Source: Opitutales bacterium
Lineage (GTDB): Bacteria; Verrucomicrobiota; Verrucomicrobiia; Opitutales; JABSRG01
Assembly: GCA_028280845.1 (NCBI GenBank)
Contig: JANQKZ010000006.1
Span: forward strand, 135,512 to 199,511
DNA length: 64,000 nt
Reading direction: 5' to 3'
The notes under the pieces were generated by a model that was given only the letters and a program-made list of their open reading frames with translations, ran no database searches and was not told the DNA's origin. Below, piece by piece: positions 6,679 to 51,305 of this stretch. The number at the start of each line of letters is the position of its first letter. Within the stretch, counting starts at the first letter, position 1. A program made the translations under genes and the position numbers.

Positions 6679-7842
6679 ATGGATTCTGATCCCTTGCGAA
6701 TAACGATTGTTACGGAGACTTTCCCCCCCGAAGTGAACGGGGTGGCCATGACCCTGCATCGCCTGGCCACCGGTCTGCAACAGAAAGGCCATGCTGTCAG
6801 CATCGTCCGCCCCAGTCAGAATGGGGCCGCCAAAGACCAAAATGACTTCAAGGTGCTCAAAGTGCCCGGTGCCCCCATCCCGGGATATCCAGGGCTGAAG
6901 TTTGGGCTGCCCTGCGGGGGCAAACTCAAAAAAGTCTGGCGGGAGACTCCTCCGGATATCATCTATGCCGCCACCGAAGGTCCGCTCGGACTCTCCTCCA
7001 TTCGCGCCGCCAAAAAATTAGGGATTCCTGTCACCTCCGGCTTTCACACCAACTTTAACCAATACATGGATCACTACACGTTCCCCGGTATGCGATCCGT
7101 TATGACGACTTGGTTACGGTGGTTTCACAACCAGACCCGGTTTACCTTTACCCCCTCCCCTAAAATGGTTGCGGACTTGGAGGGCATGGGAATCCAGAAC
7201 GTCAAACTCCTGGGTCGTGGGGTAGACACCCGCCTCTTCCACCCGGACAAGGCCAAAGCTGACCTGCGACAAGAATGGAGAATCGCCCCGGAAGGCGCCG
7301 CCAACCTGTTTGTCAGTCGAATCGCCGCCGAAAAGAATCTCCAACTCACCGCGGAAGCTTTCCAATATATAGAAGACAAACTCCCTGGCAGTGCATCCGT
7401 CTGGGTAGGAGATGGACCCGAGCGCAAGCGATTGGAAAAGGCGTACCCAAATTTCAATTTCGCGGGTATGCGTCTCGGAGAAGAACTGGCCCAGTACTTT
7501 GCCTCGGGTGACCTGTTCATTTTCGCCAGCACCACCGAAACGTTCGGAAATGTCGTAACCGAGGCCATGGCGAGTGGTCTCGTTGTGATTGCCTATAATT
7601 ACGCAGCCCCGCAAATGGTCATTGAAGACGGCGTCAACGGCTTCCTCGCTCCCTTCGATAATCGGGACGGGTTTTTCCAAGCCATCGACCGTGCGCTTCA
7701 GGCCAGGGACCGTTGGAACACGATCCGAGAGGCGGCAAGGGTAACCGCTGAATCCCTCACCTGGGAACATATTGTCGATCGCTTTGTGGATACCCTTCGT
7801 GAAGCCAGAGGTGAAACCGAGGGTAACGCTGTCCAGGCGTAG
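6679..7842 (+). CDS. Glycosyltransferase family 4 (GT-B fold)
   Basis: RITIVTETFPPEVNGVAMTL N-terminus and C-terminal ...ETFGNVVTEAMASGLVVIA... (E-x7-E-like region) are typical of GT4/GT1-type enzymes. Confidence 0.85.
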   Translation: MDSDPLRITIVTETFPPEVNGVAMTLHRLATGLQQKGHAVSIVRPSQNGAAKDQNDFKVLKVPGAPIPGYPGLKFGLPCGGKLKKVWRETPPDIIYAATEGPLGLSSIRAAKKLGIPVTSGFHTNFNQYMDHYTFPGMRSVMTTWLRWFHNQTRFTFTPSPKMVADLEGMGIQNVKLLGRGVDTRLFHPDKAKADLRQEWRIAPEGAANLFVSRIAAEKNLQLTAEAFQYIEDKLPGSASVWVGDGPERKRLEKAYPNFNFAGMRLGEELAQYFASGDLFIFASTTETFGNVVTEAMASGLVVIAYNYAAPQMVIEDGVNGFLAPFDNRDGFFQAIDRALQARDRWNTIREAARVTAESLTWEHIVDRFVDTLREARGETEGNAVQA

Positions 7843-7866
7843 AGTACTTGAATCAAATACGCACCG

Positions 7867-9183
7867 GTGAGACCCATTGACGACGAGGACATTCGAGAGG
7901 GCTTGGCAGAATTGAGGATGCTATCCCCGAGTTTGCCAGGACAGTTTTTTTCGAAACAACCCTACGAACCCCCCTGGGATCAACGATCCTTCCTCGTTCC
8001 TCTCGCCAGATTCCGCAAGGCTCTCAACATTCAAAGCCTGGAACGGGAAGCCCTTTTAAAGGATATCCGGTTCCTCCACCGTCTCCTAGCCCAATGCTAC
8101 CCGGGTTATGAACTCGGGTTGTCGGCAGGGATGAACTGGGATGGTTCCTTCGAAAACTGGAGGGATCAGGTGAGTCGAGGACCTGCTTCCATCCCTTTGA
8201 ACCTGGGATTTAAGGGATTCCAGGATATCCTGAAGCGTTGGCCTGATGTCCACACCGGCCCCCTGACGGACCAGCTTCTATCTTCCCTTAAAGCTGTGAC
8301 CCGGCTCGAACAACCCCTGGACGGACCCCACCGGGTCGCCCCCTTGTTTGACCCAAGGGAAGCTCACTTACAGCAGACCCCTTTTTATGTAGAATCCGGG
8401 GTAGCGGATCGCTTATCTTCCCCATCGGATTCGACCACTCTACCCACCTACCAGGAGCTAGGCGGCTCGTTACTCTATCTTGGTTTTCCCCGCTTTGAAC
8501 GGAACTCCCCCGCATGGTTAACCGCAAACTTATCGAAAGGCTTGGGACTCCCGAGGATCAAAGGATTAATCTTGGACTTCAGGGGAAACCTGGGCGGTGA
8601 TCTAATATTGGCTCTCAATTCCCTGAAACCCCTTTTTCCCGGATTAAATCTGTGGACAGCCTTTCGGGGACTCATCGAGATTTCCGATGCGGAGCCCTGC
8701 CATATTTCCCTCCGTCTGGGTCAGACCCTCAGCCAGGTGGCCAAGCTATCGCCTCCCTATCCCTTGGACCTTCGCGGTGGATTTGAAAACCAGGTCCTTC
8801 GCTGGAAGCAGCCCCACGTGAAACCCACCCGTCCCAGCACTTCTCAAGCCCATGTGGACGGAGCAGAGTTTCCAATTCTCGTTCTGGCCGATGGAGCAAC
8901 ATCGAGCGATGCGGAACTGTTGGTCTACGGATTCCAAAAAGTCCTCGGCGCGGTGGTGGCGGGTGAAGTCACGGCCGGGGCTATTCGGTTGATTCAGCCC
9001 GGAGCCCTCGTGTTACCCCATACCGGGGTATTGTTCCGCTTAGCCACCGCTGTGTCATACTCCATCCCCTGCTGGGGAACTGGTGTGGGCACTGGGATCG
9101 TTCCGGACATCCTGGCGCCGGAGCTAAAGACACCACAACAAGTCGAGCATCTATTCCGGCTTGCCACCGGAGACAATCCCTAG
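7867..9183 (+). CDS. S41-family (tail-specific / C-terminal processing) peptidase-like protein
   Basis: GLILDFRGNLGGD and ILVLADGATSSDAELLV match the S41 core motifs (xDLRxNxGG; Ser-containing segment). GTG start at 7867; the alternative ATG at 7918 is in frame. Confidence 0.6.
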   Translation: MRPIDDEDIREGLAELRMLSPSLPGQFFSKQPYEPPWDQRSFLVPLARFRKALNIQSLEREALLKDIRFLHRLLAQCYPGYELGLSAGMNWDGSFENWRDQVSRGPASIPLNLGFKGFQDILKRWPDVHTGPLTDQLLSSLKAVTRLEQPLDGPHRVAPLFDPREAHLQQTPFYVESGVADRLSSPSDSTTLPTYQELGGSLLYLGFPRFERNSPAWLTANLSKGLGLPRIKGLILDFRGNLGGDLILALNSLKPLFPGLNLWTAFRGLIEISDAEPCHISLRLGQTLSQVAKLSPPYPLDLRGGFENQVLRWKQPHVKPTRPSTSQAHVDGAEFPILVLADGATSSDAELLVYGFQKVLGAVVAGEVTAGAIRLIQPGALVLPHTGVLFRLATAVSYSIPCWGTGVGTGIVPDILAPELKTPQQVEHLFRLATGDNP

Positions 9184-9194
9184 AGAAAGAGTCT

Positions 9195-9701
9195 ATGCTT
9201 TCTGTTGCAGTCTGCGGTTTGCTCGGCCTTTGGTTCATGGTTTCCTGTTTAAAGCAAACCGCGCTTCCATGGGCATCTCCCCGTTTTCATACATTCAATG
9301 TGTTCGGCTTGTTGCCCAACTGGTCTCTCTTTTCGTCCAATTTTGCCGCTTATAACTACGAGCTCTGTGTACGGTATATTTCAACGGATGGACAATCCGG
9401 CAATTGGATCCCCCTCCCCTCGGGTAGCTCCCGTATTCAAGTTCCGCCGATCTGGAACCCCGAGAGAAGAATAGGAAAAGCCTATTTGGATCTCGCCCTC
9501 AAATTAATTCAACTACGATTACTGAAGAGGGATCACATCCAGTCCAGCCTCCCCTACCTCATCTGCCTGAACATGGCCTCGGCAGCCCCTTCCCCCGCAA
9601 ATGGAAAATCGCTTGAGTTTGGTTTCTTTTTACAGGAAGGCCATAACCGGGGCACCCGGAAGTTGTTCTTTTTATCATCCCGTCACCCGGTGAACCCATG
9701 A
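9195..9701 (+). CDS. Hypothetical protein, possible SdpA-family partner of the downstream HTTM-like protein
   Basis: 168 aa with an N-terminal hydrophobic segment and an LPNWSLFSS...YEL stretch reminiscent of the W-x-F-F/S motif of SdpA-family proteins. The stop overlaps the next start (ATGA). Homology is asserted from memory only. Confidence 0.3.
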   Translation: MLSVAVCGLLGLWFMVSCLKQTALPWASPRFHTFNVFGLLPNWSLFSSNFAAYNYELCVRYISTDGQSGNWIPLPSGSSRIQVPPIWNPERRIGKAYLDLALKLIQLRLLKRDHIQSSLPYLICLNMASAAPSPANGKSLEFGFFLQEGHNRGTRKLFFLSSRHPVNP

Positions 9702-10474
9702 CCGCATTGGATGCATTGGCCTGGGGGCAGACCATTCTGGTCATGGGAATCGTGCTAAGCTCCCTGGAATACCTCGCCCTTAAGCGCTGGTTTGGCGCGG
9801 GAAAGATTTTCAGAGCGATGGCCCCCTCCGGCACGGGAGTGAACAGCTTCTATGCGCTTGCTTTGGTCATGGCGACGCGCGCCCTGGCAGCTGGCCTGCT
9901 CTGCTTTACCCCGATGGATCATATGTTGCGTTCAGGGATCCTCCTCTTCCTGGTTGTAATGACACTCTGGCTTTTCCACCGTATTCCCTTTGGCCAGGAA
10001 GGCGGAGACCAGTTGACCTTGATGGCCCTGGTCCTGCTCTTCATCCAATCCCTGGATTCTCAAAACCTGATGGTCGCTCAGGCCTGCTGTCTGTTTTGGT
10101 CCGGGCAACTGGTACTGGCGTACCTCAAAACGGGCTGGATTAAATTTGCATACTCGGGATGGCGAGATGGGACGTTGTTGCAGTTACTGGGATCCAGCGA
10201 ATTGTACGGGCATCCTTTCTTACACAAAATGGTACAAACCCAAAAAGGGCAAAAAGGGGCGAGAGCTGTCCTTCTTTTTATTGAATGGGGACTTCCGCTG
10301 AGCCTGTTACTTCCCCCAAGTGTATTTTATGTCTTTTTTACACTGGCCCTGCTATTTCATTTCGCCAACGCCGTGTTCCTCGGGTTGGGCGGATTTTTCT
10401 GGGCGATGGCCGCCGTCTTTCCTTCCCTGATTGTGACGCACGGCCTTATTCAGAGGGTCCTCCAGTCGCATTAA
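9698..10474 (+). CDS. Polytopic membrane protein, HTTM/SdpB-like
   Basis: 258 aa with about 6-7 TM helices. The GQEGGDQLTLMALVLLF, QLVLAYLKTGWIKFAYSGWRDGTLL and LALLFHFANAVFLGLG segments fit the HTTM (vitamin-K carboxylase-related, SdpB-type) pattern as I recall it. Confidence 0.4.
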   Translation: MTALDALAWGQTILVMGIVLSSLEYLALKRWFGAGKIFRAMAPSGTGVNSFYALALVMATRALAAGLLCFTPMDHMLRSGILLFLVVMTLWLFHRIPFGQEGGDQLTLMALVLLFIQSLDSQNLMVAQACCLFWSGQLVLAYLKTGWIKFAYSGWRDGTLLQLLGSSELYGHPFLHKMVQTQKGQKGARAVLLFIEWGLPLSLLLPPSVFYVFFTLALLFHFANAVFLGLGGFFWAMAAVFPSLIVTHGLIQRVLQSH

Positions 10475-10478
10475 TCCG

Positions 10479-11396
10479 ATGAAGGAATACTCCGTCAACG
10501 CTGGCCCAAGGGTCCATATCCAGGAATTAGATTCCGGGACCCATGCCGCGTTTAGCCGAATGACGTTTCCCCGGTATCGTTCAAAGGTGACGGAAGTCTG
10601 TCCCACTCATCATCTTCGACTCGCCGCTTTTTCCCGGGATAAACCGATCGGGCTCTTGTTAGGTGAAATAAAAGCCCTATCCCGGGAAATGGAAATTCTG
10701 TCTCTCTTCGTCATTCAGGGAGAGCGGAGGAAGGGAGTCGCCACCGCTTTACTGCAAGAGGCAGAGCGGATTTTAGTCAGGAATAAGGTCAAATCCATGG
10801 CCCTGGTGTTTATGGAAAAGACACAAACCCCACATCCCTTACGCCCCCTCCTGGCCAGTCAGCAATGGAACTCACCGGAAATCCGTATGGTGAGCTGCTT
10901 TTCACCTAAAACCCTCCTGTCCAGGGGCCCCTGGGTGAAGCCATACGTCAACCTGAGTCCGAGGCTAGTGTTGAAAGCCTGGGTAGATTTAACCGCCGAG
11001 GAGCGCAAGTCGGTTTACCGCGAGGATGCTCCAGAAGTGCTCAAGCCAAACCCGAAAGATCGGACCCTGGAACCCGTTTCCAGTATCGTCGTCTTTGAGG
11101 GAAAGCTTCCGATTGGGTGGATGATCAATCACGAGATTGACTCCGACCGAATCCGCTTCTCCCATCTATGGGTAAGATCTGGTATCTCCCCACGACAGTT
11201 GAACGGGATCGCCCTGGTCGGACATTCGATTCATCGTTGGGCGGAATCCCCCGCCTGCCAGGCATTAGTTTTTGCCTCCATGAACTTTCAAGCCCACAAC
11301 CGACCTATGTGGAATTTTTTGACCCGGCACTTAAAACCATATCTAGATGATATTCGCTTCTCCTTTGGGGCTCGCAAAGAACTAACCGAACGATGA
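10479..11396 (+). CDS. GNAT-family acetyltransferase, two-lobed (paralog of 16501..17409)
   Basis: Acetyl-CoA-binding-type segment ILSLFVIQGERRKGVATALLQEAERIL, plus a second C-terminal lobe. The stop overlaps the lanM start (ATGA). Confidence 0.7.
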   Translation: MKEYSVNAGPRVHIQELDSGTHAAFSRMTFPRYRSKVTEVCPTHHLRLAAFSRDKPIGLLLGEIKALSREMEILSLFVIQGERRKGVATALLQEAERILVRNKVKSMALVFMEKTQTPHPLRPLLASQQWNSPEIRMVSCFSPKTLLSRGPWVKPYVNLSPRLVLKAWVDLTAEERKSVYREDAPEVLKPNPKDRTLEPVSSIVVFEGKLPIGWMINHEIDSDRIRFSHLWVRSGISPRQLNGIALVGHSIHRWAESPACQALVFASMNFQAHNRPMWNFLTRHLKPYLDDIRFSFGARKELTER

Positions 11397-14300: not shown

Positions 14301-14650
14301 CGCCCTTGCCGGGCTTGGTCGAACAGGATATCCTCCGTGCCTTGGACTGCACGAAATCGCAACCCCTTACTCCCCTGGATCATTTATGTTGCGGGAATCT
14401 TGGCCGAGCCCAGGCCCTTCAAGTGGGGGGACTCCGCACCGGGGACACAAGCCTGGTCCTATCGGCCCAGAAATTGACCCAACAAGTCTACTCCCGGGCC
14501 AGAAACCAAGGGGGTTACGGTCTGGGGCTCGCGCCCGGGCTGGACATTTTTTCCTTTCACCAGGGCCTCGCCGGGATCGGCTATCATTTCCTCTGGATGA
14601 ACCACCTGAACACCTTACCTTGTATCCTCGCATGGGAAACAACACCGTAA
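11393..14650 (+). CDS. lanM: Class II lanthipeptide synthetase (LanM), ProcM-like CCG type
   Basis: 1085 aa. The N-terminal dehydratase region carries the kinase-like loop DLHNENLIAHGAHPVIVDLETI. The C-terminal LanC-like cyclase has GFSHGAAGI, WCHGAPGIGL and DHLCCGNLG. Confidence 0.93.
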   Translation: MKIESADLQQIASRGLFLHERIALNEAFSSASEAENPSSVERRVQAWKKAGAAGHEDAFHRLLQNDELDDPDYTLLFEESLRLKPEAFPDWVNRGEALLESYSKTAELTFDELEASLPFLNSDTPVAFEHLLGPLVCFFARQVEAKCPKLLNWVSHSAWNEYQHTFLVTLAMIGSETLGQEFSIFRAVRKTMQGKSPGRQPGSREIYAAFVDHQRRGKLVKTLTRYPLLLRYWISTGYQFVRNAVTFFHHLETDFADIRDELNQGKSPGKVSKLTPGISDRHDGGKTSVRVEFEDGLRTIYKAKSLDTEVGYHRLLDWLNQQGLSTPLNGYHVIDKQGHGWVEFVDVQACRNKEEVKTYFTRGGMLLALFYAIEGSDLHNENLIAHGAHPVIVDLETILQSRPRSLEERGPGQALIQANQFFYWDSVFRTALLPRWEIGPEGQSYDISGLGGVQEHTTSFVQKQWKQINSDDMQLTRQTLSTSPNQNVVRLNGTIQLPSDHREELLQGFREMYALLLEKREELLAPGGPLHRLSRCPVRFIQRNTRIYVTLLRKLALPKNLTFGPDASIVVESLARPFLSLDAPHPYWPLVKVERENCFHLDIPRFMANPDSADLEISAEKTLPAFFEEPAWEQVQKRFRTLSEADCDLQQAFIRSSFASTPSQSLEPPPTDINPTAWENVDPQAWEDEALELAEKACHAAIRSSGNEVSWLTLSYFAEAQRWQVQPMAARLYDGLCGPLVFLAAAERVSGGSPEFRATLEGTVRSISSFLQDAYAARYLFEAGTGAGLGASSLIYALVVAGALLEDRDTLNLAEKCAFWVGEDQCEADQRNDLLGGNAGAVSAFLALHSVRSSGTWMDRALACGDLLLGQRVKTDSGYHTWLTLENKPLLGFSHGAAGIIMALSQLGEQSGESRYIEAAEEALAYENSFFDEEKGNWPDLRYRQTKDGYHFTNRWCHGAPGIGLGRLYTPLPGLVEQDILRALDCTKSQPLTPLDHLCCGNLGRAQALQVGGLRTGDTSLVLSAQKLTQQVYSRARNQGGYGLGLAPGLDIFSFHQGLAGIGYHFLWMNHLNTLPCILAWETTP

Positions 14651-15561
14651 CACTCAGTGTCCTGGAATTTGGCTACTTGGGCCCCAATCAGGACGCCCGC
14701 CTGCGCCTACAGGCTGTCGTGGACCACGGCCCCGTCTTCGAAGCCATGGGGTTTCATCGATATTGGTTGGCCGAACATCATGAGGCACACTTCGCCTTCG
14801 CCGTGCCGGAACTTATGATCCCCGCAATTGCGGCGAAAACTTCGACCATTCGTTTGGGAACGGCCGGTGTGCTCATGCAATTCCACAGCCCCCTGAGAAT
14901 CGCAGAATCCTTCCGCATGCTCGAAGCCCTCTACCCCGATCGCATCGACTGTGGTGTCGCCTCCGGGGTTACCGCCCATGTCGAGGTCCGCAAAGATCTT
15001 TATCCCGACTTTGACTTGGATCGCGCTATCCGGGATCGCCAATACACCCAGCACGTGGAGCGCCTCATCACCCTGCTGCGGGATGAAGCCCACTACGACC
15101 ATCGCCATTACCGCAGTGTGAGCCCGGCTCGGCAAGCCAGCCCGGCCATCACGCTCCTGGGCGCTGCCCGAGGCAAGGGAAACCAAATCCTGGCCTCCCG
15201 GCACGGGACCGCCTTTTGCTATTCTCTGGCCCATGGTCCCTCCGAACAAGGCCCGGCCATTTGCCAAAGATATCGAGAAAACTTTCAGGCCAGTAAGACC
15301 CTTCAGGAACCCAAGCTACTCATCGCCGCCACCGTCATATGCGCCGAAACCAACGCAAAAGCAGTCGAGTATTTGAATTACTTAAAAGCGATGAACCAGA
15401 CCGTGGGCACAGTGATTATGGGTAACCCGCGATTGTGCCGGGATAAAATACTCCAGCTTTGTGAACAGTTTCAATGCCATGACTTCGTCATCATCCCCAT
15501 GTATCCCAAGGCCCATCAGGTCACAGAAGGCATGGAACGCCTTATGGAGACATTCTCGTAA
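14632..15561 (+). CDS. LLM-class (luciferase-like, group 1) flavin-dependent oxidoreductase
   Basis: LSVLEFGYLGPN...GFHRYWLAEHHEAHFAFAVPELMIPAIAAKTSTIRLGTAGVLMQFHSPLRIAESFRMLEALYPDRIDCGVASG matches the luciferase-family group 1 pattern. The homology starts at the ATG at 14632, which overlaps the lanM end by 19 nt. The ORF-track start at 14203 is an out-of-frame run-in through lanM. Confidence 0.85.
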   Translation: MGNNTVTLSVLEFGYLGPNQDARLRLQAVVDHGPVFEAMGFHRYWLAEHHEAHFAFAVPELMIPAIAAKTSTIRLGTAGVLMQFHSPLRIAESFRMLEALYPDRIDCGVASGVTAHVEVRKDLYPDFDLDRAIRDRQYTQHVERLITLLRDEAHYDHRHYRSVSPARQASPAITLLGAARGKGNQILASRHGTAFCYSLAHGPSEQGPAICQRYRENFQASKTLQEPKLLIAATVICAETNAKAVEYLNYLKAMNQTVGTVIMGNPRLCRDKILQLCEQFQCHDFVIIPMYPKAHQVTEGMERLMETFS

Positions 15562-15596
15562 AAAAAAGCAGGATCGGAAATCCTGCCTTTTGATTT
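15560..15596. terminator. Bidirectional rho-independent terminator between the LLM gene and the precursor operon
   Basis: The A-run at 15560-15567 is followed by the hairpin gcaggat-cggaa-atcctgc at 15568-15586 and then cttttgattt. Read on the minus strand, the hairpin is followed by T8. Confidence 0.75.
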
Positions 15597-15618: not shown

Positions 15619-15999
15619 CTAGACGCAACCGCCAACCGCGCCCACACCGGGATAACCAATGCTAACGGTTGAGGTCACCGCACAAGAGGCTGCACAGGAT
15701 GCTGCGCACCGCGCGCCCCCTGCTACCTGTTCCAACTCACTATCGGAGAGTTCTTCGTCCTCATCGACAGGCTCATCGAGAATGATATTCACGAGCGCAC
15801 CCTTACCATCGTGAAACTTGACCGAGATCCCATCCGGAACGGGTTTGGCCGATTGCTCCATGATGGCCGCCTGGGGATCGCTCAGGGCTTTTTCTCGAAA
15901 AGCAGCATCGGTACGGGCACGTTCAATGGTGGAACGAAGCAGGTCCTCAATATCACGCGGTTCCCAATTCGGACTAGCCGCACTATCGAAGTCTGACAT
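15619..15999 (-). CDS. NHLP-leader lanthipeptide precursor A1 (core 15622..15714)
   Basis: 126 aa. The leader ...AFREKALSDPQAAIMEQSAKPVPDGISVKFHDGKGALVNIILDEPVDEDEELSDSELEQVAGG fits the nitrile-hydratase-like leader (NHLP) pattern and ends in a double glycine. The core is ARCAASCAASCAVTSTVSIGYPGVGAVGGCV. Confidence 0.88.
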   Translation of the reverse strand: MSDFDSAASPNWEPRDIEDLLRSTIERARTDAAFREKALSDPQAAIMEQSAKPVPDGISVKFHDGKGALVNIILDEPVDEDEELSDSELEQVAGGARCAASCAASCAVTSTVSIGYPGVGAVGGCV

Positions 16000-16001
16000 G
16001 A

Positions 16002-16334
16002 CTAGAATCCTTGACTGACGACACAGCTAGCGGCGCAACTGCCTCCGCAACGATTTCCGTCTCCGACACCCCCTGCTACTTGCTCCAATTCGCTGTCACT
16101 CAATTCTTCGGCGACAGGATCAGGCAGGACAAAGGTAAAGGTAGCTCCAGCGTTATCCACGAAGCGGATAGAAACACCTTCCGGAATGGGTTTATCCGTG
16201 AATTTTGCGATGGCCGCATGGGGATCTGACATTGCGAGTTCGCGTAATTCGGGATCAGTGCTTGATTTTGCTAGAAGTTCGGAAGCAACTTCGTTAATTG
16301 AATCTTCGGTCCAGGGTCCGGGATCGATGGCCAT
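16002..16334 (-). CDS. NHLP-leader lanthipeptide precursor A2 (core 16005..16067)
   Basis: 110 aa. The leader is ...ELRELAMSDPHAAIAKFTDKPIPEGVSIRFVDNAGATFTFVLPDPVAEELSDSELEQVAGG and the core is VGDGNRCGGSCAASCVVSQGF. Its stop lies 2 nt upstream of the A1 start, and an AAGGA Shine-Dalgarno for A1 sits inside its last codons. Confidence 0.88.
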   Translation of the reverse strand: MAIDPGPWTEDSINEVASELLAKSSTDPELRELAMSDPHAAIAKFTDKPIPEGVSIRFVDNAGATFTFVLPDPVAEELSDSELEQVAGGVGDGNRCGGSCAASCVVSQGF

Positions 16335-16500
16335 AAGGTATCCTTACTAGAGGTTAATTCGTGGTGTTTAAGAATTGAGATAGCGACAGAATGGATTTTC
16401 TGTAGCTGGAAGTGTTAGGGCATCTTTGCCTGTGTAAAGGTTGAATTTAACCTACTATGCCCTATTAGCCCCCCTGTTGAGTTTTCATGGTTTATTTACA

Positions 16501-17409
16501 ATGCCTAATATAGGGTCTATCCCCGATCCCCGCCTGGTGGACTTGGAAGACCTGCGGGCCCTTCGATATCGCTCCTTCACCTTTCCGACTCATGCCAATC
16601 TGCTCTCCCAGACAGAGAGACCGGAAGTCGTGGCTATCGGGTTGGAACGGGCAGGACGACCCATCGGCCTGGGACTCGGGATGCGGGGAAACAGTGAAGC
16701 CTATTCCGGTGACATCCTGTCGCTGGCCGTGGCTGCCGAATATCGAACCCAAGGCTACGGCAGTGCGCTCCTCAATCGTTTGGAGTGCCGCCTTCAGCAA
16801 AAGGGGGCCTGCTTTGCCAGCCTACAGTACATGTCCCACCAGAAGAGCACCCCTTATCTGGAACGCATGCTTCGTTCCGCTGGTTGGGAAGAGCCAGTCC
16901 ATCGGCAATTGTTCTGTGCCTCCACCTACACAAGGATTCTAAAGGCCCCCTGGATGCGCTTCAGAACCCTGCCGGACGGCTTCGAGACCTTTTCCTGGCC
17001 TGCAGGACTTCAAGATTCGGAATGGAAACGACTGACTGGCGAAGGTGGGCGAGCGTCCTGGTTCCCGGAATTGTTAAATCCCTTGCATAGCGTGGAAGAC
17101 ATCGATGGAGAAAATAGCCTGGGATTGCGGTTTCGGGGGGACCTGGTCGGATGGCTGATCGCTTTCCGGATTGCCCCGACGACCGTCCGCTATCAAAAAC
17201 TCTTTATCAAGGATGAATTCCAGAAACAGGGATTGGCGATTCGACTCCTGGCGATGGGGATTTATCCCCTGCCCTCCACTGGGGTCGACTCCGCGGTCTG
17301 GGATGTGATCCCCACTAGCAAGAATATGCTCAATTTTGTTGAGCGGGGTTTGCGACCCTACTGCACAGAATACAAATGGTCGATGGGAGCCATCAAACGG
17401 TTTTCCTGA
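16501..17409 (+). CDS. GNAT-family acetyltransferase, two-lobed (paralog of 10479..11396)
   Basis: ILSLAVAAEYRTQGYGSALLNRLECRL GNAT core. The segment STPYLERMLRSAGWEEP...APWMRFR aligns by eye with TPHPLRPLLASQQWNSP...GPWVKPY of the other GNAT. I prefer the ATG at 16501; the ORF track opens at a TTG at 16441. Confidence 0.7.
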   Translation: MPNIGSIPDPRLVDLEDLRALRYRSFTFPTHANLLSQTERPEVVAIGLERAGRPIGLGLGMRGNSEAYSGDILSLAVAAEYRTQGYGSALLNRLECRLQQKGACFASLQYMSHQKSTPYLERMLRSAGWEEPVHRQLFCASTYTRILKAPWMRFRTLPDGFETFSWPAGLQDSEWKRLTGEGGRASWFPELLNPLHSVEDIDGENSLGLRFRGDLVGWLIAFRIAPTTVRYQKLFIKDEFQKQGLAIRLLAMGIYPLPSTGVDSAVWDVIPTSKNMLNFVERGLRPYCTEYKWSMGAIKRFS

Positions 17410-17425
17410 TTTCCCCACATAGTCC

Positions 17426-18355
17426 ATGGATCCGATACCTCTCATAATCCTGGAAGAGCACCACGAGGCATTTTATACCCTGGTCGCAGCCAAAAAGAAG
17501 GGGTGGCTGGGGGATCAGCCGTACGCCCTCCTTCATGTCGATGAACATTCAGACATGTCGCTTCCTCGCTTGAGACATCCCCTTCCCCGGAAGCGTGACC
17601 CGATAGAAACCTGGATTCGATTTACCTACAATGAGCTGGATATCGGGAATTTCATTTGGCCCCTGGTCTATTTAGGTCATTTGGACTCGGTCACCTGGTT
17701 TCGCTTCCAACACAAAAAGGCAGTCACACCCCGGCATCTCGAAATATGCACCACGGATGACCGGGGGCTGGAATTTATGACGGCCGGATCTCTGGATCAG
17801 ACCGCTTATCGAAACCGACCCGACCGACGCTCCCTCCGCTATGAAACCCGTTCACCTGGCGAAAGCTACGCACCCGACGGCCCGTGGATCTTAAGTATCG
17901 ACGAGGATTTTATTGCCGCCAACCCCTTTCCAAAGATAGAGGATCGGGTGATCGAAATCACGGAAGCCAGTTACCATGCCTTTCTCCGGGATCCATACCA
18001 TTTTCTCAGGATTTCACCGGGCTCCAAGCCGAGTGTATTTGTAAAAGATAAGCGATATTTCTTAAATTTTAACGATCTTCCTTCCTCCGGAGTAACCGAT
18101 TCCTTACAAGTACTGGATTTATCGCCTCGTTATGAAACCCTCAACACCCTTTTGAAGGGAATTCGCCGGCCTCCTGAGTTGATTATGCTTTGCCGCTCGT
18201 TAAAAAGTGGTTACCTGCCTATAACGCTTTTCCCCTCCATTGAAGCACGCTTGTTGCGAGACCTCAGCCATTGCTATCCCACCCAACTTATTCGGGTACA
18301 CGAAATCATCCCCGACTCTGTGAAAGTCGAATACGCCTTTTACCCCAATGATTGA
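17426..18355 (+). CDS. UPF0489-like protein (arginase/ureohydrolase-related fold suspected)
   Basis: The N-terminus PLIILEEHHEAFYTL...ALLHVDEHSDMSLP resembles UPF0489 (PF12640). The motifs EEHHE, HVDEHSD and LSIDEDFIAANP resemble the ureohydrolase metal-binding signatures (GGDHS, DAHxD, SxDxDxxDP). Confidence 0.5.
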   Translation: MDPIPLIILEEHHEAFYTLVAAKKKGWLGDQPYALLHVDEHSDMSLPRLRHPLPRKRDPIETWIRFTYNELDIGNFIWPLVYLGHLDSVTWFRFQHKKAVTPRHLEICTTDDRGLEFMTAGSLDQTAYRNRPDRRSLRYETRSPGESYAPDGPWILSIDEDFIAANPFPKIEDRVIEITEASYHAFLRDPYHFLRISPGSKPSVFVKDKRYFLNFNDLPSSGVTDSLQVLDLSPRYETLNTLLKGIRRPPELIMLCRSLKSGYLPITLFPSIEARLLRDLSHCYPTQLIRVHEIIPDSVKVEYAFYPND

Positions 18356-19310
18356 AGACCACTCCTCGGGAACCACATCCGCCATCGTGCCTCCCTATCC
18401 CCTACCCTTTGAAGCGATAGAGCGGAGGGACGGTCTGTCTCCTGAAGTTTTCCAGGAACGCTATGAAAGCGGAATGCGCCGCCCGGTCGTGGTGACCGAC
18501 GCCATGCAGGAATGGCCTGCCTGGGGAAAGTGGGGGTTTGATTTTTTCGCGAAACAGTATGGAGAAGAACGCGTCGTCGTCACCAACCGCCTGTCCGGGG
18601 CCACGGCCGCCCGGCGGATAAAGATGGGAGATTTCATTACCTATTGTCAGTTTCCTGCCTTCAGTCCCCTTTCCAAAAACGAGACGGATACCCCCTTTTA
18701 CCTGACCTCATTTTCTCCCTTCGTAGACCACCCCGAGCTCTACGGAGACTTTGAGGATCCCTACTTTCTGAGTAACCTCTACCGGTCTCTCGAGGGTCCC
18801 CTGGGCGATTGGTATAAACAAGGCTTCGGCTGGATTTTTATTGGACCTGCGGGAACCCTCTCCCCTCTCCATCTCGATCTTTTTGGAACCCATGCCTGGC
18901 TGGCCCAATTTCATGGGCGGAAGCGCTTCCTTCTGTTCCCGAAAACAGACTTCCCCTACGTCTACGATGGTCGGCCTGATTTTATTAACCCGGATCTCAA
19001 GGCCTTTCCGGACCTCGCCAAGACCCGACCGGTCCTGGCCATCCTCGAGCCTGGGGAAGTCATTTATATCCCAGAGGGATGGGCTCATCATGTGGTCTCA
19101 TTAGATCCCTCCATATCCCTCACATTTAACTTCGTGGACGCCAGTAATGCCGTCGACCATGTGATGGCCATCACCCGCGACTTGCCAAACTGGGTGAACA
19201 AAACCGGAACTGATTCCTTTAAGCAGGCAAACCGGGTATACTGGACCCAGGCGGAGTTCAGTTTTCCTGGCCAGGATGACAACAATGGGAAGGAAGAAGG
19301 TTCTCACTGA
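18348..19310 (+). CDS. JmjC / cupin_8 Fe(II)/2-oxoglutarate-dependent oxygenase
   Basis: WIFIGPAGTLSPLHLDLFGTHAWLAQFHGRKRFLLFP ... IYIPEGWAHHVVSLDPSISLTFNF gives an HxD...H facial triad on a cupin fold, typical of JmjC-only hydroxylases. The start overlaps the upstream stop by 8 nt. Confidence 0.8.
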   Translation: MIEDHSSGTTSAIVPPYPLPFEAIERRDGLSPEVFQERYESGMRRPVVVTDAMQEWPAWGKWGFDFFAKQYGEERVVVTNRLSGATAARRIKMGDFITYCQFPAFSPLSKNETDTPFYLTSFSPFVDHPELYGDFEDPYFLSNLYRSLEGPLGDWYKQGFGWIFIGPAGTLSPLHLDLFGTHAWLAQFHGRKRFLLFPKTDFPYVYDGRPDFINPDLKAFPDLAKTRPVLAILEPGEVIYIPEGWAHHVVSLDPSISLTFNFVDASNAVDHVMAITRDLPNWVNKTGTDSFKQANRVYWTQAEFSFPGQDDNNGKEEGSH

Positions 19311-19311
19311 T

Positions 19312-20955
19312 ATGCATATAGCCAGGATTCAGCCTGCTCGCTTGCTATCCCGAATCTCACCTTGGATCATCCTTCTGGCGTGGTCCTGTACGGGAGTCGG
19401 CCAAGCGCGGAACGACCCGAATCCCCTGCAGATTGATCGTTCGATCCCGGCTCCGGATGATCTTCCCCAGTCCAGATTGGTCGGGCCCACGGCTCCTCCC
19501 GGGCCGTTGACCCTCGAAGATGTGATCCGAATCAGTCTGGAGTCCAATGTGGAGATCCTCGTTCGCCAAGAGGACGTCATCATCGCGGACGCCCAACTGC
19601 AGCAGGTCTCTTCCGTGTTTAACCCGCAGATTGACGCCACCCTGGATAGCAACGAAACCCGGGTGAACTCCGCGCTCTCGACCGCTCCGGAAGATCTTTT
19701 TATTTCCGAGTCGGAAACGTCCACCTACTCTCTCGCCGTCACCAAAACCTTCCGCAGCGGGATTTCTCTCACCCCCAGCCTGGAATACGATTTATCTGCA
19801 TCCAATACGGACGGATTGGTGCCTTCCAACCGCGGCATCTGGCAACTGAACATCACGGTTCCCTTACTGAAAGGATTCGGCAGAATCGCCACAGCTGGAA
19901 AGGAGCTGGCGGCCCAGAAAAATGTAGAAGCCGTGCAGTTTGCCTATGAGCATACACTGTCCGAGCAACTCTCCCTGGTCGTCGCGGCTTACTGGAGTTA
20001 CCTCTCGGCCGCCCGAAATCTCGATATTCTTCAAAGGGCAGAACAGCGGGGCGAACTGCTCCTCCGACAGACCGAAGCCCTGATCGAGGCAAATCAACTG
20101 CCTGCCGCCGAAATCAGTAAATCCCAGGCCGATTTATCCGCCCGCCGCGCTGACCGCTCCAGGGGAGAACTCAGCCTCTTTTCGGCTAGGCGCAACTTGG
20201 GGCTCCTCATGGGACTATCCAAAGAAACGGTCACTACCCTAACGGAACCCTCCACCCCGTTCACGATTGTCCCCCCGGTAGACCCAACTTCCCTCCTTGA
20301 TCAAAGTGAACGCTACGTCGATTTGGCTCTGCAACAACGCCGGGATTTACAAGCTGCGGCTGGACAGACTAAGGCGACTGAGGTGTTGAGAAAGCAAGCC
20401 GAAGCCCTGGATAAAATCCAGGTCGACTTCACCTTGGGGGTTGGCTATTCGGGCTATTCCCCAGGGCGTTCTTTCAGCGCCAAACCGGAATCCTTTTACC
20501 GGCATCTCGAAGGGCCCAGTTATGAGGCGACCTTCAACATCGGTTGGGGCTGGAATCGCAACCTCGAAAAAGGAACCTTGCGCGAACGGCTCTCCCGGGA
20601 AGCCCAGGCCCGCTATGCGGAAGTCCAGCTGGAACGCGAGATCTACTCCGGGGTGATCCGAGCCTTAGAAAACTTGAGGACCGCTTCCCTCACCCTGGAA
20701 GAATCTAACAAGGCTCAACTGCTTTTCCAGAAATCGCTCGAATTAGAGGCTCAAAAGCTCCAGTTGGGCCAAGCTACCATTATTGATGTCATCAACCTGC
20801 AGGAACGCCTGACCCAGGCGGAACTCGAGTTGACTCAGGCTCAGCTTCAATACGTCAATGCCATCGTCGAGCTTCGTTTTCAAACCGGAACCCTCCTGAA
20901 TCTACAGGAGGATATGTTTCAATTAAACCAGGATGCCCTGACGACCCTCCCCTAG
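19312..20955 (+). CDS. TolC-family outer-membrane efflux protein
   Basis: Signal-like N-terminus, LTLEDVIRISLESNVEILVRQEDV... and two long coiled-coil repeat halves typical of OEP/TolC. The ATG at 19312 lies 1 nt after the JmjC stop; the track start at 19276 overlaps it. Confidence 0.85.
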   Translation: MHIARIQPARLLSRISPWIILLAWSCTGVGQARNDPNPLQIDRSIPAPDDLPQSRLVGPTAPPGPLTLEDVIRISLESNVEILVRQEDVIIADAQLQQVSSVFNPQIDATLDSNETRVNSALSTAPEDLFISESETSTYSLAVTKTFRSGISLTPSLEYDLSASNTDGLVPSNRGIWQLNITVPLLKGFGRIATAGKELAAQKNVEAVQFAYEHTLSEQLSLVVAAYWSYLSAARNLDILQRAEQRGELLLRQTEALIEANQLPAAEISKSQADLSARRADRSRGELSLFSARRNLGLLMGLSKETVTTLTEPSTPFTIVPPVDPTSLLDQSERYVDLALQQRRDLQAAAGQTKATEVLRKQAEALDKIQVDFTLGVGYSGYSPGRSFSAKPESFYRHLEGPSYEATFNIGWGWNRNLEKGTLRERLSREAQARYAEVQLEREIYSGVIRALENLRTASLTLEESNKAQLLFQKSLELEAQKLQLGQATIIDVINLQERLTQAELELTQAQLQYVNAIVELRFQTGTLLNLQEDMFQLNQDALTTLP

Positions 20956-20992
20956 GTCTGATGAAACACACTATGATGAAAGGTTGGCTGAC

Positions 20993-22249
20993 ATGGATCC
21001 CATGAAGAAAATTTTCAGGCAAAAATCGCTCGATAAAATCTCGTCTCCCGAGCGCCTGGACGAACTCATGCAGGTTACGAGTCCCCGCCTCTGGATAGCC
21101 CTGCTTACCCTGGGGATCCTCCTGGCCTTTACTCTGGTCTGGGGCGTATTCGGGAGAATCCCCCAAAAGGTTCACGGTCGGGGCATCCTGATCAAAACTG
21201 AGGGACTCTACACCGTGACCACTGAAGGGGCCGGACGGGTTGTGGAAATCTCAGTCAAACCCGGAGAATCCATCGAGACGGGACAGCACATAGCCCGGGT
21301 GGAAGACCCGAATATGCAAAAATTAATCAAAGACGGAAAGGCAAATCTAGCCCGCCTGCAGGAAGTCCACAACACACTCGTCGAGTTCAACCACCGTGAA
21401 GTGAAACTCAAACAGGAATCCATTGATAGGCAGAAAGTCGGCCTGGAAAACACTTTGGATTCGCTGAATCGTAAGGCGTCCTACTTGAAGGAACAACTGA
21501 AGACATTTGACAAACTCTTGGAGGAAGGACTCGTCACCACCAAAACGCGACAACAAACCAACCTCGAAATTCTTCAAGTCGAACTGCAGATCGAGGAAAA
21601 CCACAACAAAATCAGTAACCTGGTGTTGGCCCGGGAGGAAGTGGAAAGCCAGTCGACTCAAGAGATTCAACAATCACAAACTCAGTTGGAGACAGAGCGG
21701 CGTCGGTTAGAGGAACAGGAATTAGCTTACGAGAGAGAAGCCGCCGTGGTCTCCCCCTATTCCGGGAATGTCCTGGAAGTACTCGTCGACCAGCACCAGT
21801 TAGTTGGAGTGGGGAATTCCGTCATCAATTTGGAGTTAACCGGACAGGATTTGACTGTGAGCTTCTTCATCCCTGACACGGAAGGGAAGAAGGTTCGCGA
21901 GGGCTCAGTAATCCAGGTATCCCCGACCACCGTAAAAAAAGAACGCTACGGCGTGCTGCTCGGCGAAGTTGTCAGTATTTCGGAGTTTCCGGCGACCCCT
22001 GTCTTCATGATGCATATCCTTCAGAACAAGGAACTCGTTCATGAAATGGCCCAGACTGGTGATCAATTTGCCGGCGTAGCCTCCATCCAGAAAGATAGCA
22101 ACACCCCGAGCGGGTTTCGATGGTCCTCCGCCCAAGGCCCACCCAAGCAATTATACGCCGGGACGATTTGCGAAGTGAGTGTCGTGACCGAAGAGACGCC
22201 CCCCATCTCCCTCGTCATTCCCTTCCTCCGAAAGCTGTTCGGTTTATAA
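20993..22249 (+). CDS. HlyD-type membrane fusion protein, NHLM bacteriocin-system secretion protein type
   Basis: FRQKSLDKISSPERLDELMQVTSPRLWIALLTLGILL N-terminus, a long coiled coil and a C-terminal beta-barrel region, as in TIGR03794-type adaptors. First ATG at 20993; the track opens at a TTG at 20984. Confidence 0.82.
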   Translation: MDPMKKIFRQKSLDKISSPERLDELMQVTSPRLWIALLTLGILLAFTLVWGVFGRIPQKVHGRGILIKTEGLYTVTTEGAGRVVEISVKPGESIETGQHIARVEDPNMQKLIKDGKANLARLQEVHNTLVEFNHREVKLKQESIDRQKVGLENTLDSLNRKASYLKEQLKTFDKLLEEGLVTTKTRQQTNLEILQVELQIEENHNKISNLVLAREEVESQSTQEIQQSQTQLETERRRLEEQELAYEREAAVVSPYSGNVLEVLVDQHQLVGVGNSVINLELTGQDLTVSFFIPDTEGKKVREGSVIQVSPTTVKKERYGVLLGEVVSISEFPATPVFMMHILQNKELVHEMAQTGDQFAGVASIQKDSNTPSGFRWSSAQGPPKQLYAGTICEVSVVTEETPPISLVIPFLRKLFGL

Positions 22250-22253
22250 GCCC

Positions 22254-24464: not shown

Positions 24465-24467
24465 GCC

Positions 24468-33952: not shown

Positions 33953-34314
33953 ATGGTTATATATATGGGTTTATGGGTATATGGTAGTATTTGGCGAGTT
34001 TCACAAGAGGAAAGAATAGGTCAAAGACTCCAGGCTGGGGTCATAATTATGTGCCTCTTGTGTTGTTTTAGGCTACCCTCCCTACGCTTTTTACACGAAC
34101 CAATCGTTTTCAGAATTCCCAAACAGACCCCAATCCCTTGCGGTTCACCTGCATCACAACCCCAAGATCTAGGGATCAAGCGACCAAATCGTTGTTACGA
34201 TCCGGTTAACCCTGTCACAACCAGGTCAAAAATGGGAATAAGGTGTGAATAACTTTTGACCCCCGACAAACCGCCCTTTAATCGAAATTCCCGAGCTGAA
34301 TGATCCTCTTCTAA

Positions 34315-35259
34315 ATGAAAAATGTATCTCTCAAATACAAAACCATCTTTCTCTCGGACGTCCACCTCGGCATGGCGGACTGTAAGATCGAGGATGTAAA
34401 TTTTTTCCTGAAACACGCCCATTGTGATCGCCTGATCCTGAATGGGGATATCATCGACGGACTCGCCCTCAAACGTGGAGGAAAATGGACGAAAAAGCAC
34501 ACGCGTTTCATTCGCCTTGTCCTCAAGAAAATGGAGAAGAAGCGGACAGAAATCATCTATGTCCGGGGCAATCACGACGACATCCTCAAACGTTTTCTTC
34601 CGCTAAAGTTCGATAAACTCCAGGTTGTAGATAAATTTGTCCATAGTACACCGAATGGTGAATACCTCTGCATCCATGGAGATGGGCTTGATATGATTTG
34701 CGCCCACCACCCATGGCTCATGCATGTGGGTAACTTCGGGTATGACTTTATGCTCTGGCTGAATCGCAAGTACAATGCCTGGCGGGCATGGAGAGGAAAG
34801 GAGTATTTCTCGATCAGCAAAGTCATTAAAGCAAAGGTCAAAGGCGCCGTCAGTTTTGTTGGAAATTACGAAGACGAATTGCAGAAACTGGCCGAGCGTA
34901 ATGGCTACAAGGGTATCATTGCCGGACACATCCATACGCCCGGCAACAAGATGATAGGCAACGTCCACTACCTGAATTCCGGAGACTGGGTAGAATCGTC
35001 CACCTGCATCGTGGAGCACTTCGACAACACCTTTGAGGTGCTACAATTTGAAGACTTTATAGCCAGGCTCCAGGAAAAGGCTGAACGGAAGAAAGGAAAA
35101 ACAGGCGCCAAAATCATCTGCATCGGCGATGACCTTCCTCCTGAGGAAGAAGAGGAGGAGGAAGATATCATCGCTACTGCCATGGTCGATACTTACGTAG
35201 AGGAAAAAAAGATCTCTCGAAAAAAACAAAAGGCCGCCGCTAAGGCCGCTGCGGTGTAG
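34315..35259 (+). CDS. UDP-2,3-diacylglucosamine diphosphatase-like metallophosphoesterase (LpxH/LpxG-like)
   Basis: Calcineurin-like motifs IFLSDVHLG, LNGDIIDG, RGNHD and GHIHTP, plus an unusual Glu-run and Lys/Ala-rich C-terminal tail. Confidence 0.7.
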   Translation: MKNVSLKYKTIFLSDVHLGMADCKIEDVNFFLKHAHCDRLILNGDIIDGLALKRGGKWTKKHTRFIRLVLKKMEKKRTEIIYVRGNHDDILKRFLPLKFDKLQVVDKFVHSTPNGEYLCIHGDGLDMICAHHPWLMHVGNFGYDFMLWLNRKYNAWRAWRGKEYFSISKVIKAKVKGAVSFVGNYEDELQKLAERNGYKGIIAGHIHTPGNKMIGNVHYLNSGDWVESSTCIVEHFDNTFEVLQFEDFIARLQEKAERKKGKTGAKIICIGDDLPPEEEEEEEDIIATAMVDTYVEEKKISRKKQKAAAKAAAV

Positions 35260-35486
35260 CCAACCGATTTGCATTTTTGTCGGGGCTGCGCTCGCCGCAG
35301 GTCCTGAGCCTGTCAAAGGGTGTATGCCCCATTGATCATTGGATCTTGGACTTGGATATTGATTCTTATTGAATAGGAAATGGTTTAGCCGCCCTACTAG
35401 CAGCATCACCCTACCGAATCCCTATTAAGGGAACCTTTGCTCTGACGATGGTTCAGTATAAGTAGACCTTTTACCACAGATAAATC

Positions 35487-35921
35487 ATGAAAACAAAGAC
35501 CCTCACCCTCCTTTTTTCTCTAGCTCTCTTCACTGGGCTGGCCGGGTGCGCGACCACTACTGGCACCGCCGGCAAGGTGAGAACTGGGTCCCCCCTGAAC
35601 CAGGAATACCCGACGACGTGGATAACTGAAGCTGACCAGGCTCCCATTCTTCAGTCCGGGAAAGCACCTTCCCAGCCCATCGGTGAAGCCTTCGCCAGCG
35701 GCTTTGCCAAACTTACCTTCACCGTGACGGCCGAAGGCAAAACCGAAAATATCAGAGTTGTTGATTCCGAAGGCAGCCGCTACTTCGGCGGAAACTCCAG
35801 GGAAGCCATTAAATACTGGCGTTATACTCCGGCCATGAAAGACGGTCAGCCTGTCGCTTGTGATGGTGAGATCACTTTTAACTTCACCGGAGCTACCCGG
35901 GGAGCGCGGCCTCAAAATTAA
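35487..35921 (+). CDS. Lipoprotein with TonB C-terminal-like domain
   Basis: Lipobox LTGLAGC. The C-terminal segment KLTFTVTAEGKTENIRVVDSEG...AIKYWRYTPAMKDGQPV resembles TonB_C. Confidence 0.6.
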   Translation: MKTKTLTLLFSLALFTGLAGCATTTGTAGKVRTGSPLNQEYPTTWITEADQAPILQSGKAPSQPIGEAFASGFAKLTFTVTAEGKTENIRVVDSEGSRYFGGNSREAIKYWRYTPAMKDGQPVACDGEITFNFTGATRGARPQN

Positions 35922-35947
35922 CTTTAATCTGAATAACCTTTAAACTT

Positions 35948-35978
35948 AAAACCGGGGTGGACACGCCCCGGTTTTTTG
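35948..35978 (+). terminator. Rho-independent terminator
   Basis: Stem accgggg / ccccggt with loop tggacacg, followed by a T6 run (aaaaccggggtggacacgccccggtttttt). Confidence 0.8.
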
Positions 35979-51249: not shown

Positions 51250-51305
51250 ATAGTGATGGTTATTTCATGCCAGAACACCATGCAAGTTTAGGAGACAGAT
51301 TTTTC

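Follow-up and report, generated by a model that had tools for sequence, protein, structure and literature searches.

A three-gene set coupled to a class II lanthipeptide gene cluster

The 64,000-nt stretch of DNA analysed here (the window) carries three consecutive genes, for an S41-like protein, a 168-aa protein (open reading frame 3, ORF3) and a 258-aa protein (ORF4), directly upstream of the genes for a GNAT-like protein and a class II lanthipeptide synthetase (LanM). A preliminary description had placed the three ORFs in one operon with lanM and had suggested that they process the peptide, ORF3 and ORF4 as an SdpA/SdpB pair. Profile, structure and gene-order comparisons with related loci (L001–L016) lead us to read ORF3 and ORF4 as LinL- and LinG-like proteins of the linaridin type. 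The three ORFs and their junctions could be read directly in the sequence as described, and the motifs quoted for them (LILDFRGNLGGD, ADGATSSDAELLV, GGDQLTLMALVLLF and LKTGWIKFAYSGWRDG) were all found. The features of the locus are collected in Table 1.

Table 1. Features of the locus with their positions in the window
Feature	Position	Strand	Basis or remark
miaA	5651–6604	-	divergent from GT4
GT4 glycosyltransferase	6679–7842	+	Pfam GT4
S41-like serine hydrolase (predicted), 438 aa	7867–9183	+	Pfam PF03572
LinL-family protein (predicted) ORF3, 168 aa	9195–9701	+	BLASTP, profile and hhalign to LinL
LinG-family polytopic membrane protein (predicted) ORF4, HTTM fold, 258 aa	9698–10474	+	phmmer family, AlphaFold2/Foldseek, tblastn to LinG
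GNAT-like protein, 305 aa	10479–11396	+	PF00583, E = 6.1e-8
LanM, class II lanthipeptide synthetase, 1085 aa	11393–14650	+	TIGR03897, E = 1.9e-225; DUF4135 and LANC_like domains
LLM (luciferase-like) oxidoreductase, MsnO8 family	14632–15561	+	TIGR03558, E = 2.4e-53; final gene of the + strand string
Terminator-like GC-rich hairpin with T-rich tail	15568–15586	+	between the convergent LLM and precursor genes
NHLP-leader precursor 1	15619–15999	-	TIGR03793, E = 8.4e-13
NHLP-leader precursor 2	16002–16334	-	TIGR03793, E = 3.7e-12
Second tailoring operon: GNAT-like, peptide arginase, Cupin_8/JmjC	16441–19310	+	family matches; same order in L001
GNAT-like protein 2, ~320 aa, paralogue of the 10479–11396 protein	16441–17409	+	
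Peptide arginase	17426–18355	+	NF052474, E = 5e-48
Cupin_8/JmjC hydroxylase	18348–19310	+	family match
Export genes: OEP (outer-membrane factor), HlyD-like, C39-peptidase ABC transporter, NHLP ABC2 transporter	19276–27443	+	TIGR03797, E = 1.5e-253

By inspection of the sequence, a 24-nt spacer separates the GT4 stop (7842) from the GTG start of the S41-like gene (7867), which is the first start codon 3’ of an in-frame stop at 7849–7851. The S41-like gene ends in TAG (9181–9183) and is followed, after 11 nt (AGAAAGAGTCT), by the ATG of ORF3 (9195). ORF3 and ORF4 share an ATGA (9698–9701); 4 nt lie between the TAA of ORF4 (10472–10474) and the ATG of the GNAT-like gene (10479), which itself shares an ATGA with lanM (11393–11396). 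The LLM gene starts with an ATG at 14632 inside the 3’ end of lanM, an overlap of 19 nt. From the S41-like gene through the LLM gene the junctions are 0–11 nt, and a promoter scan returned 6 candidates where 5.4 were expected from shuffled sequences, that is, no excess. The operon-like coupling to lanM was borne out, both by these short gaps and ATGA overlaps and by a second genome (L001, below) in which order and junctions are kept.

The locus has the components of a class II lanthipeptide cluster: LanM (750.7 bits against TIGR03897), two Cys-containing NHLP precursors (with 4 and 3 Cys), and C39 ABC and NHLP ABC2 exporters, the C39 ABC transporter providing leader cleavage at GG. Downstream of the GG site, the core of precursor 1 is ARCAASCAASCAVTSTVSIGYPGVGAVGGCV and that of precursor 2 is VGDGNRCGGSCAASCVVSQGF. 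Both precursor genes lie on the - strand, convergent with the LLM gene and about 5 kb downstream of ORF3 and ORF4.

Conservation of the cluster in a second genome

An alignment search with three sequences returned a single genome locus, L001, from an Opitutaceae metagenome-assembled genome (JANQKV010000012.1). It encodes, in order, an S41-like, a LinL-like, a LinG-like and a GNAT-like protein, LanM, LLM, two - strand precursors, a further GNAT-like protein, an arginase and a Cupin protein. Between the window and L001 the trio is 40–44% identical and the cluster enzymes are 40–58% identical; the junctions of the trio in L001 are a 13-nt gap, an ATGA overlap and a 1-nt gap. Because the three genes are conserved to this degree, in the same order and with tight junctions, they are not chance ORFs. 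The upstream flank of L001 is unrelated and has neither GT4 nor miaA. Since the gene order is kept while the upstream flank differs, the S41-like gene is the left border of the conserved cluster and the trio belongs to it. GT4 probably lies outside the conserved cluster, and may be co-transcribed with the S41-like gene.

The cores have changed far less than the enzymes. Core 1 is identical in the window and in L001 (precursors at 15944–16669, - strand) and core 2 differs by 1 residue; such near-identity beside diverged enzymes suggests that the cores are under very strong purifying selection. A third instance is a 1.6-kb metagenome fragment (L002) with the order LinL-LinG-GNAT, and an orthologue of the GNAT-like gene lies 3’ of the LinG-like gene in both L001 and L002.

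ORF4 is predicted to be an HTTM-fold protein of the LinG family

ORF4 is polytopic by transmembrane prediction. Alone, it gave no Pfam match, and none to PF05090 (HTTM) even at E ≤ 10, and a word-indexed search of 5.8 billion proteins returned the query alone. An exhaustive phmmer search gave 1546 cluster representatives at E ≤ 1e-3 (clustered at 50% identity), 412 of them at E ≤ 1e-10 and most of them about 270 aa long. In an alignment of 70 sequences (ORF4 and 69 relatives), 25 matched PF05090, the best at 1e-9, and 33 matched the SdpB family TIGR04033, the best at 2.7e-9, in both cases well under the family cut-off. Two relatives (P0006 and P0007) carry precomputed HTTM matches. Lys149, within the motif AGxxK...W..G, is nearly invariant across the family and might be the counterpart of the catalytic Lys218 of GGCX.

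An AlphaFold2 model built from this alignment reached a pLDDT of 94.6 and a pTM of 0.90 (the single-sequence model had a pLDDT of 56 only). Searched with Foldseek against the PDB, it gave human vitamin-K-dependent gamma-glutamyl carboxylase (GGCX), the prototype of the HTTM superfamily, for all of the top 12 matches (probability 1.00, TMq 0.60–0.67, ~270 columns), and the matches ranked after GGCX had TMq below 0.25. Because the model matches GGCX structures only, ORF4 is predicted to be a membrane protein of the HTTM fold. The membrane domain of GGCX superposes on the predicted fold at a sequence identity of 14–17%, and the large luminal domain of that enzyme has no counterpart in ORF4. Sequence did not bridge the two: the ORF4-family profile found nothing among PDB sequences, and GGCX was not reached via a Streptomyces HTTM protein as an intermediate. 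GGCX modifies peptides that bear a recognition propeptide or leader. The HTTM nature first suggested for the 258-aa protein is therefore supported by the GGCX fold of the model and by the profile matches of its relatives.

Among characterized proteins, the relatives of ORF4 lead to linaridins. With ORF4 as query (a search with the family member P0156 was also run), tblastn against 7.3 Gb of plasmids matched actinomycete records only, 13 of the 16 from Streptomyces, with a best E of 1e-11 at 92% coverage; all four matches whose context was inspected are LinG or LinH genes. BLASTP aligned ORF4 with the LinG of Streptomyces sp. 2P-4 (L011) at 29% identity over 254 aa (E = 3e-23). A metagenome scan with the ORF4 alignment found nothing.

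L011 encodes three ~60-aa precursors with the motif PVMATP and, after them, the ORF4-like protein, an alpha/beta-hydrolase, an ORF3-like protein of 181 aa, an S-adenosylmethionine methyltransferase and an ABC transporter. L012 encodes two PxxxTP precursors, a 601-aa protein in which the transmembrane domain is fused to an alpha/beta-hydrolase, an ORF3-like protein of 193 aa, and again a methyltransferase and an ABC transporter. The precursor motifs of the two loci (PVMATP/PVAFTP) fit the linaridin motif PxxxTP, and L011 and L012 are bona fide linaridin clusters.

ORF3 and the LinL family

ORF3 is predicted to have a single N-terminal transmembrane helix. It matched no Pfam or NCBIfam model even at E ≤ 10, the word-indexed search again returned the query alone, and tblastn against the plasmids found nothing. 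The proteins encoded just upstream of ORF4 relatives nevertheless align with ORF3 and share with it the N-terminal helix and the motifs LLPNWxLF(A/S)P, WxPxRR, KAxxD, QFA and FxSxxH; a profile made from them scored newly fetched members at 98–128 bits. The same family reaches LinL. BLASTP matched ORF3 to the LinL of L011 with E = 1e-10, a profile of six non-actinobacterial ORF3-family sequences scored two LinL proteins at 107.5 and 77.1 bits (E = 3.5e-29 and 7.8e-20, Z = 1e6), and hhalign of the ORF3 family with LinL gave 99.6% over 159 columns. By these comparisons, ORF3 and ORF4 are homologues of LinL and LinG, that is, of CypL and of the N-terminal domain of CypH.

A second type of HTTM partner, DUF5819 (PF19136), resembles LinL and ORF3 in its N-terminal helix and a ‘NW.LFAP.P’ motif. 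Six of nine aligned sequences matched PF19136 at E ≤ 1 and ORF3 itself did not; hhalign gave 78–81% over the N-terminal 55–74 residues, and the C-terminal halves did not align. DUF5819-HTTM sets, which may also carry a DCC1 thiol-disulfide oxidoreductase (none is present in the window), were seen on 9–10-kb Bacillus plasmids and on a Streptomyces plasmid (L007, 2833–4498; L008, 948–2935; L009, 2997–5034).

The S41-like protein

The S41-like protein matches PF03572 with E = 1.2e-9 and 38.5 bits, above the cut-off of 24, and its L001 orthologue (40% identical) scores 57.9 bits. In an alignment with Ctp, IRBP and NSR chains of solved structure, Ser347 (TSSDAE) fell on the catalytic Ser of Ctp (SASASE), while the catalytic Lys (TFGKG) fell on Ala372 (TAGAIR); the L001 orthologue has the same Ser and the same Ala. 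Further matches are to IRBP, which is non-catalytic, and, at a weak level, to the nisin-resistance protein 4y68 (E = 0.009). No PDZ domain was matched in Pfam even at E ≤ 10, no signal peptide or transmembrane helix was predicted, and the N-terminal 200 residues matched no known family. A metagenome alignment scan and plasmid tblastn with S41-like queries were both empty.

Thus the S41 assignment is supported, with a caveat: the PF03572 score is above threshold and the nucleophile Ser, shared with Ctp/Tsp and NSR, is kept, while the Lys of Ctp/Tsp is missing, as are the PDZ domain and the secretion signal. Two His residues, His129 (WPDVHTGP) and His279, are kept in both orthologues. Some members of the S41 family, namely NSR, tricorn and CPAF, have His in the role of Lys, and His129 or His279 could likewise supply a Ser-His arrangement. 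As far as its sequence can tell, then, the protein appears to be a non-canonical, cytoplasmic protein of the S41 fold.

Comparison with linaridins and lanthipeptide/linaridin hybrids

In linaridin nomenclature, LinG is the transmembrane domain, LinE the alpha/beta-hydrolase and LinH the fusion (CypH), with LinL (CypL), LinM and LinT named in the same scheme; deletion of cypH, cypL, legE or legG abolishes linaridin production, and the known linaridin clusters are actinobacterial except for two (bioRxiv 10.1101/2020.07.09.196543). LinE, LinG and LinL have been proposed to install the Thr-derived dehydrobutyrines (Dhb) (bioRxiv 10.1101/2020.07.09.196543; PMC9927463). CrdG of corynaridin is annotated as an HTTM domain protein, and a LinG of the HTTM type is a standard component of linaridin clusters (PMC9927463). 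LinHL has been counted among the L-to-D epimerases of peptides that are synthesized ribosomally and modified post-translationally (RiPPs) (PMC10406935, PMC12661438), and GrmL has been named a potential epimerase (PMC10373908).

Both ORF3 and ORF4 show full-length homology to their linaridin counterparts; in both settings the genes of the pair abut or overlap, there is one N-terminal helix in LinL, LinG is polytopic with the HTTM fold, and the pair sits in a RiPP cluster beside precursors and an ABC exporter. There are also differences. Linaridin clusters have LinE or the LinH fusion where the window has the S41-like protein; their gene order is LinG-LinE-LinL, whereas here LinL precedes LinG; they have LinM and LinD, which are lacking here; their precursors carry PxxxTP, whereas the window has NHLP leaders with GG sites and LanM; and they are nearly all actinobacterial, whereas the present host, judged by the orthologous cluster in Opitutaceae, is probably verrucomicrobial.

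Hybrids of class I LanB/LanC with LinE/G/L have been reported, by bioinformatics, from the Streptomyces strains S. atratus, S. xiamensis and NRRL F-2890 (Georgiou et al. 2020, bioRxiv 10.1101/2020.07.09.196543). They too combine a lanthionine synthetase, LinG and LinL in one operon with Cys-rich, lanthipeptide-like precursors. One such hybrid, L016 on an S. atratus plasmid (NZ_CP108284.1, 4077–13045), has the order LanA-LanB-LanC-LinG-LinE-LinL-LLM-GNAT. Its LinG matches ORF4 with E = 4.5e-16 and its LinL matches ORF3 with E = 5.5e-11. Like the window, it has an LLM oxidoreductase and a GNAT (~285 aa) beside LinL, and these LLM and GNAT proteins show no BLAST similarity to those of the window. 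The class I hybrids use LanB and LanC and keep LinE, whereas the window has LanM, NHLP leaders and the S41-like protein without LinE, to which it adds a peptide arginase and a hydroxylase of the JmjC type. It was too strong to claim novelty, as was first done, for an HTTM protein encoded in a lanthipeptide operon: LinG is standard in linaridins, class I hybrids were reported in 2020 and L016 is such a hybrid. What is already known is thus the HTTM protein in a RiPP cluster, as LinG, and the lanthipeptide/linaridin hybrid as such. Four points are new: LinL/LinG are combined with LanM of class II and with NHLP leaders; LinE is lost, and a Lys-less protein of the S41 fold stands in its place; the host is probably verrucomicrobial; and the pair keeps company with a peptide arginase, a hydroxylase of the JmjC type, two proteins resembling GNAT and an LLM oxidoreductase.

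LinL-LinG pairs outside lanthipeptide clusters

A gene of 110–193 aa overlaps or abuts the 5’ end of the HTTM-like gene in L001–L006 and L013–L015, all the ORF4-relative loci that were fetched. Counted over L001–L006 and L011–L016, with the DUF5819 loci set aside, a LinL-like gene adjoins or overlaps the LinG-like one in each of the 11 inspected loci that have a member of the ~270-aa family of ORF4. The stand-alone pairs among them come from Pirellulales, Aquimarina and Ascidiimonas (Planctomycetota and Bacteroidota) and from two metagenome contigs. The LinL-LinG pair is therefore a portable module and is not lanthipeptide-specific. The preliminary description had held that conservation of the trio in genomes without the lanthipeptide genes would speak against its proposal; no such case was seen for the trio, while the LinL-LinG pair alone does occur at loci that have no lanthipeptide genes within ~8 kb (L004–L006 and L013–L015).

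Just 5’ of the pair, three of these loci have a small, conserved ORF of 78–100 aa (L005 from Aquimarina, 7213–7470; L006, 7228–7464; L013, 7112–7414), with an N-terminal motif ‘ATLDL.IA’ and a C-terminal motif ‘(D/E)(D/E)LL.(L/V)RNN’. These could be an uncharacterized precursor-peptide family of stand-alone LinL/LinG modules.

Proposed function

From the homology, the predicted fold, the gene coupling and the conserved synteny, we infer that the window encodes a LinL/LinG tailoring complex that acts on the NHLP lanthipeptide precursors and epimerises and/or dehydrates some of their residues; we regard this as the better-founded reading, and as somewhat likely. CypH and CypL are reported to associate with the membrane and to carry out the modifications that define the family. 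ORF3 and ORF4 would form a membrane-associated complex whose substrates would be the two precursors, either ahead of export or in its course. If it works as LinH/LinL do, abstraction of the C-alpha proton would lead to L-to-D epimerisation and/or to elimination of the Thr/Ser hydroxyl. The likely target would be the C-terminal half of core 1 (AVTSTVSIGYPGVGAVGGCV), which is hydrophobic and resembles linaridins, and whose processing by LanM may be incomplete. The S41-like protein would most likely be a soluble subunit, the third of the complex, or a hydrolase dedicated to trimming. Because LanM already dehydrates, we favour epimerisation as the non-redundant contribution of the complex. The product of the cluster is probably a lanthipeptide with added linaridin-style modifications, and the role in peptide maturation first suggested for the trio is likely.

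As the cluster has no alpha/beta-hydrolase, we tentatively suggest that the S41-like protein fills the slot of LinE beside LinL and LinG; its position and the Ser-hydrolase folds of both proteins are the basis for this possibility, which is less likely than its alternatives taken together. The GGCX-like fold of the model further invites the speculation that the complex might use a quinol-driven strong-base mechanism. In its widest form, which we consider rather doubtful, the proposal, drawn from the roughly 1,500 cluster representatives and the spread of the stand-alone pairs inspected, would be that LinL/LinG(HTTM) is a phylum-spanning membrane machine for peptide modification with an exchangeable soluble hydrolase partner: a Lys-less S41-fold protein would have replaced LinE, the module would have been recruited to a class II NHLP pathway, and membrane quinol may be used, as in GGCX, for removal of the C-alpha proton.

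Several observations weigh against a tailoring complex of this kind. The LanM-linked arrangement is seen in three instances only, of which one is the 1.6-kb fragment, and the S41-like protein in two clusters only, the window and L001. LinL-LinG pairs occur with no lanthipeptide genes within ~8 kb (L004–L006, L013–L015). The linaridin motif PxxxTP is not in the NHLP precursors, which have GG cleavage sites instead, and a search for a hidden PxxxTP precursor among the small ORFs of the window found only spurious ORFs within other genes. An alpha/beta-hydrolase (LinE, or the LinH fusion) is absent among the genes scanned at 2342–27443, and the cluster has no LinM; it is by position alone that the S41-like protein is linked to LinE. 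Dehydration is already provided by LanM, so a dehydratase role may be redundant, and the chemistry of LinG and LinL is only partly resolved even for linaridins.

Of the alternatives, the one that survives best, although we judge it unlikely, is that the S41-like protein is an independent protease that either trims residues from the peptide, before or after its export, or confers NSR-like self-resistance by cleaving the lanthipeptide, with LinL and LinG doing a separate job. The above-threshold match to PF03572, the retained nucleophile and the weak match to 4y68 would suit such a protease, as would the invariant His129 and His279 in view of the His-using members of the family. Having neither signal peptide nor transmembrane helix, however, the protein would stay in the cytoplasm, where it would not encounter a lantibiotic from outside; Ala stands for the catalytic Lys in the two orthologues, a PDZ domain was looked for and not found, there is kinship with IRBP, and cleavage of the GG leader is already covered by the C39 ABC transporter.

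Quite improbable, in our view, is the SdpA/SdpB pair of the preliminary description, which would mature or export the peptide as for the SDP toxin while the S41 protein trims it. SdpB of Bacillus subtilis is an HTTM-superfamily membrane protein needed for maturation of a ribosomal toxin peptide, and its small upstream partner gene, sdpA, overlaps sdpB; the arrangement of a small gene followed by an overlapping HTTM gene is the same here, and ORF4 does match TIGR04033 over its C-terminal half (E = 0.0049), as do the 33 family members mentioned above. At 16.5 bits this match is nevertheless far under the cut-off of 178.4, and ORF4 was rejected as a member of the SdpB family proper; it is closer to LinG. 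For ORF3, the SdpA identity had been marked at the outset as the least secure point, and it was rejected once three NCBIfam scans had come back empty: ORF3 (E ≤ 10), a 7-member alignment of ORF3 with 6 relatives (E ≤ 10) and a 9-member alignment with 8 relatives (E ≤ 1) gave no SdpA match, with the limits that the presence of TIGR04034 in the release is unconfirmed and that HMMER filters may hide very weak matches. The closest characterized relatives of ORF3 are LinL proteins, and the full-length matches to LinL and LinG are much stronger than anything found for the Sdp families. Precursor type and export route differ as well, since there is no SdpC-like, Sec-secreted precursor and the precursors are of NHLP type with GG leaders.

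That the trio are unrelated neighbours, for example cell-envelope genes after GT4, is very improbable: GT4 is just 24 nt away and LinL-LinG pairs do occur in many non-lanthipeptide contexts, but L001 retains S41-LinL-LinG-GNAT-LanM-LLM without GT4 or miaA, a synteny that largely refutes this explanation, and the ATGA overlaps into the GNAT-like gene and lanM and the documented RiPP role of LinG and LinL speak against it too.

If ORF3 and ORF4 do form a LinL/LinG tailoring complex, the locus is of interest beyond its own product. LinG and LinL are the least understood of the class-defining RiPP enzymes and were thought nearly exclusive to Actinobacteria; the loci described here indicate a far wider and largely unexplored spread of LinL-LinG modules. 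The locus amounts to a natural experiment on the roles of the subunits, LinE being essential in linaridin genetics yet absent here. With LanM covering dehydration, changes that depend on LinL/LinG, such as D-residues, would be cleanly readable. It is also a target for genome mining, as the product would be heavily tailored, with lanthionines, probably ornithine or hydroxy-ornithine, acylation and D-residues.

Other features of the locus

Each core peptide contains one Arg. Conversion of Arg to ornithine, hydroxylation, acylation of the selidamide type and reduction of dehydroalanine or Dhb in the product are plausible. The hairpin between the convergent LLM and precursor genes could serve as a bidirectional terminator. 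Finally, low-GC patches occur at 50001–52000 (0.44) and 34001–36000 (0.49), compared with ~0.54 in the rest of the window.

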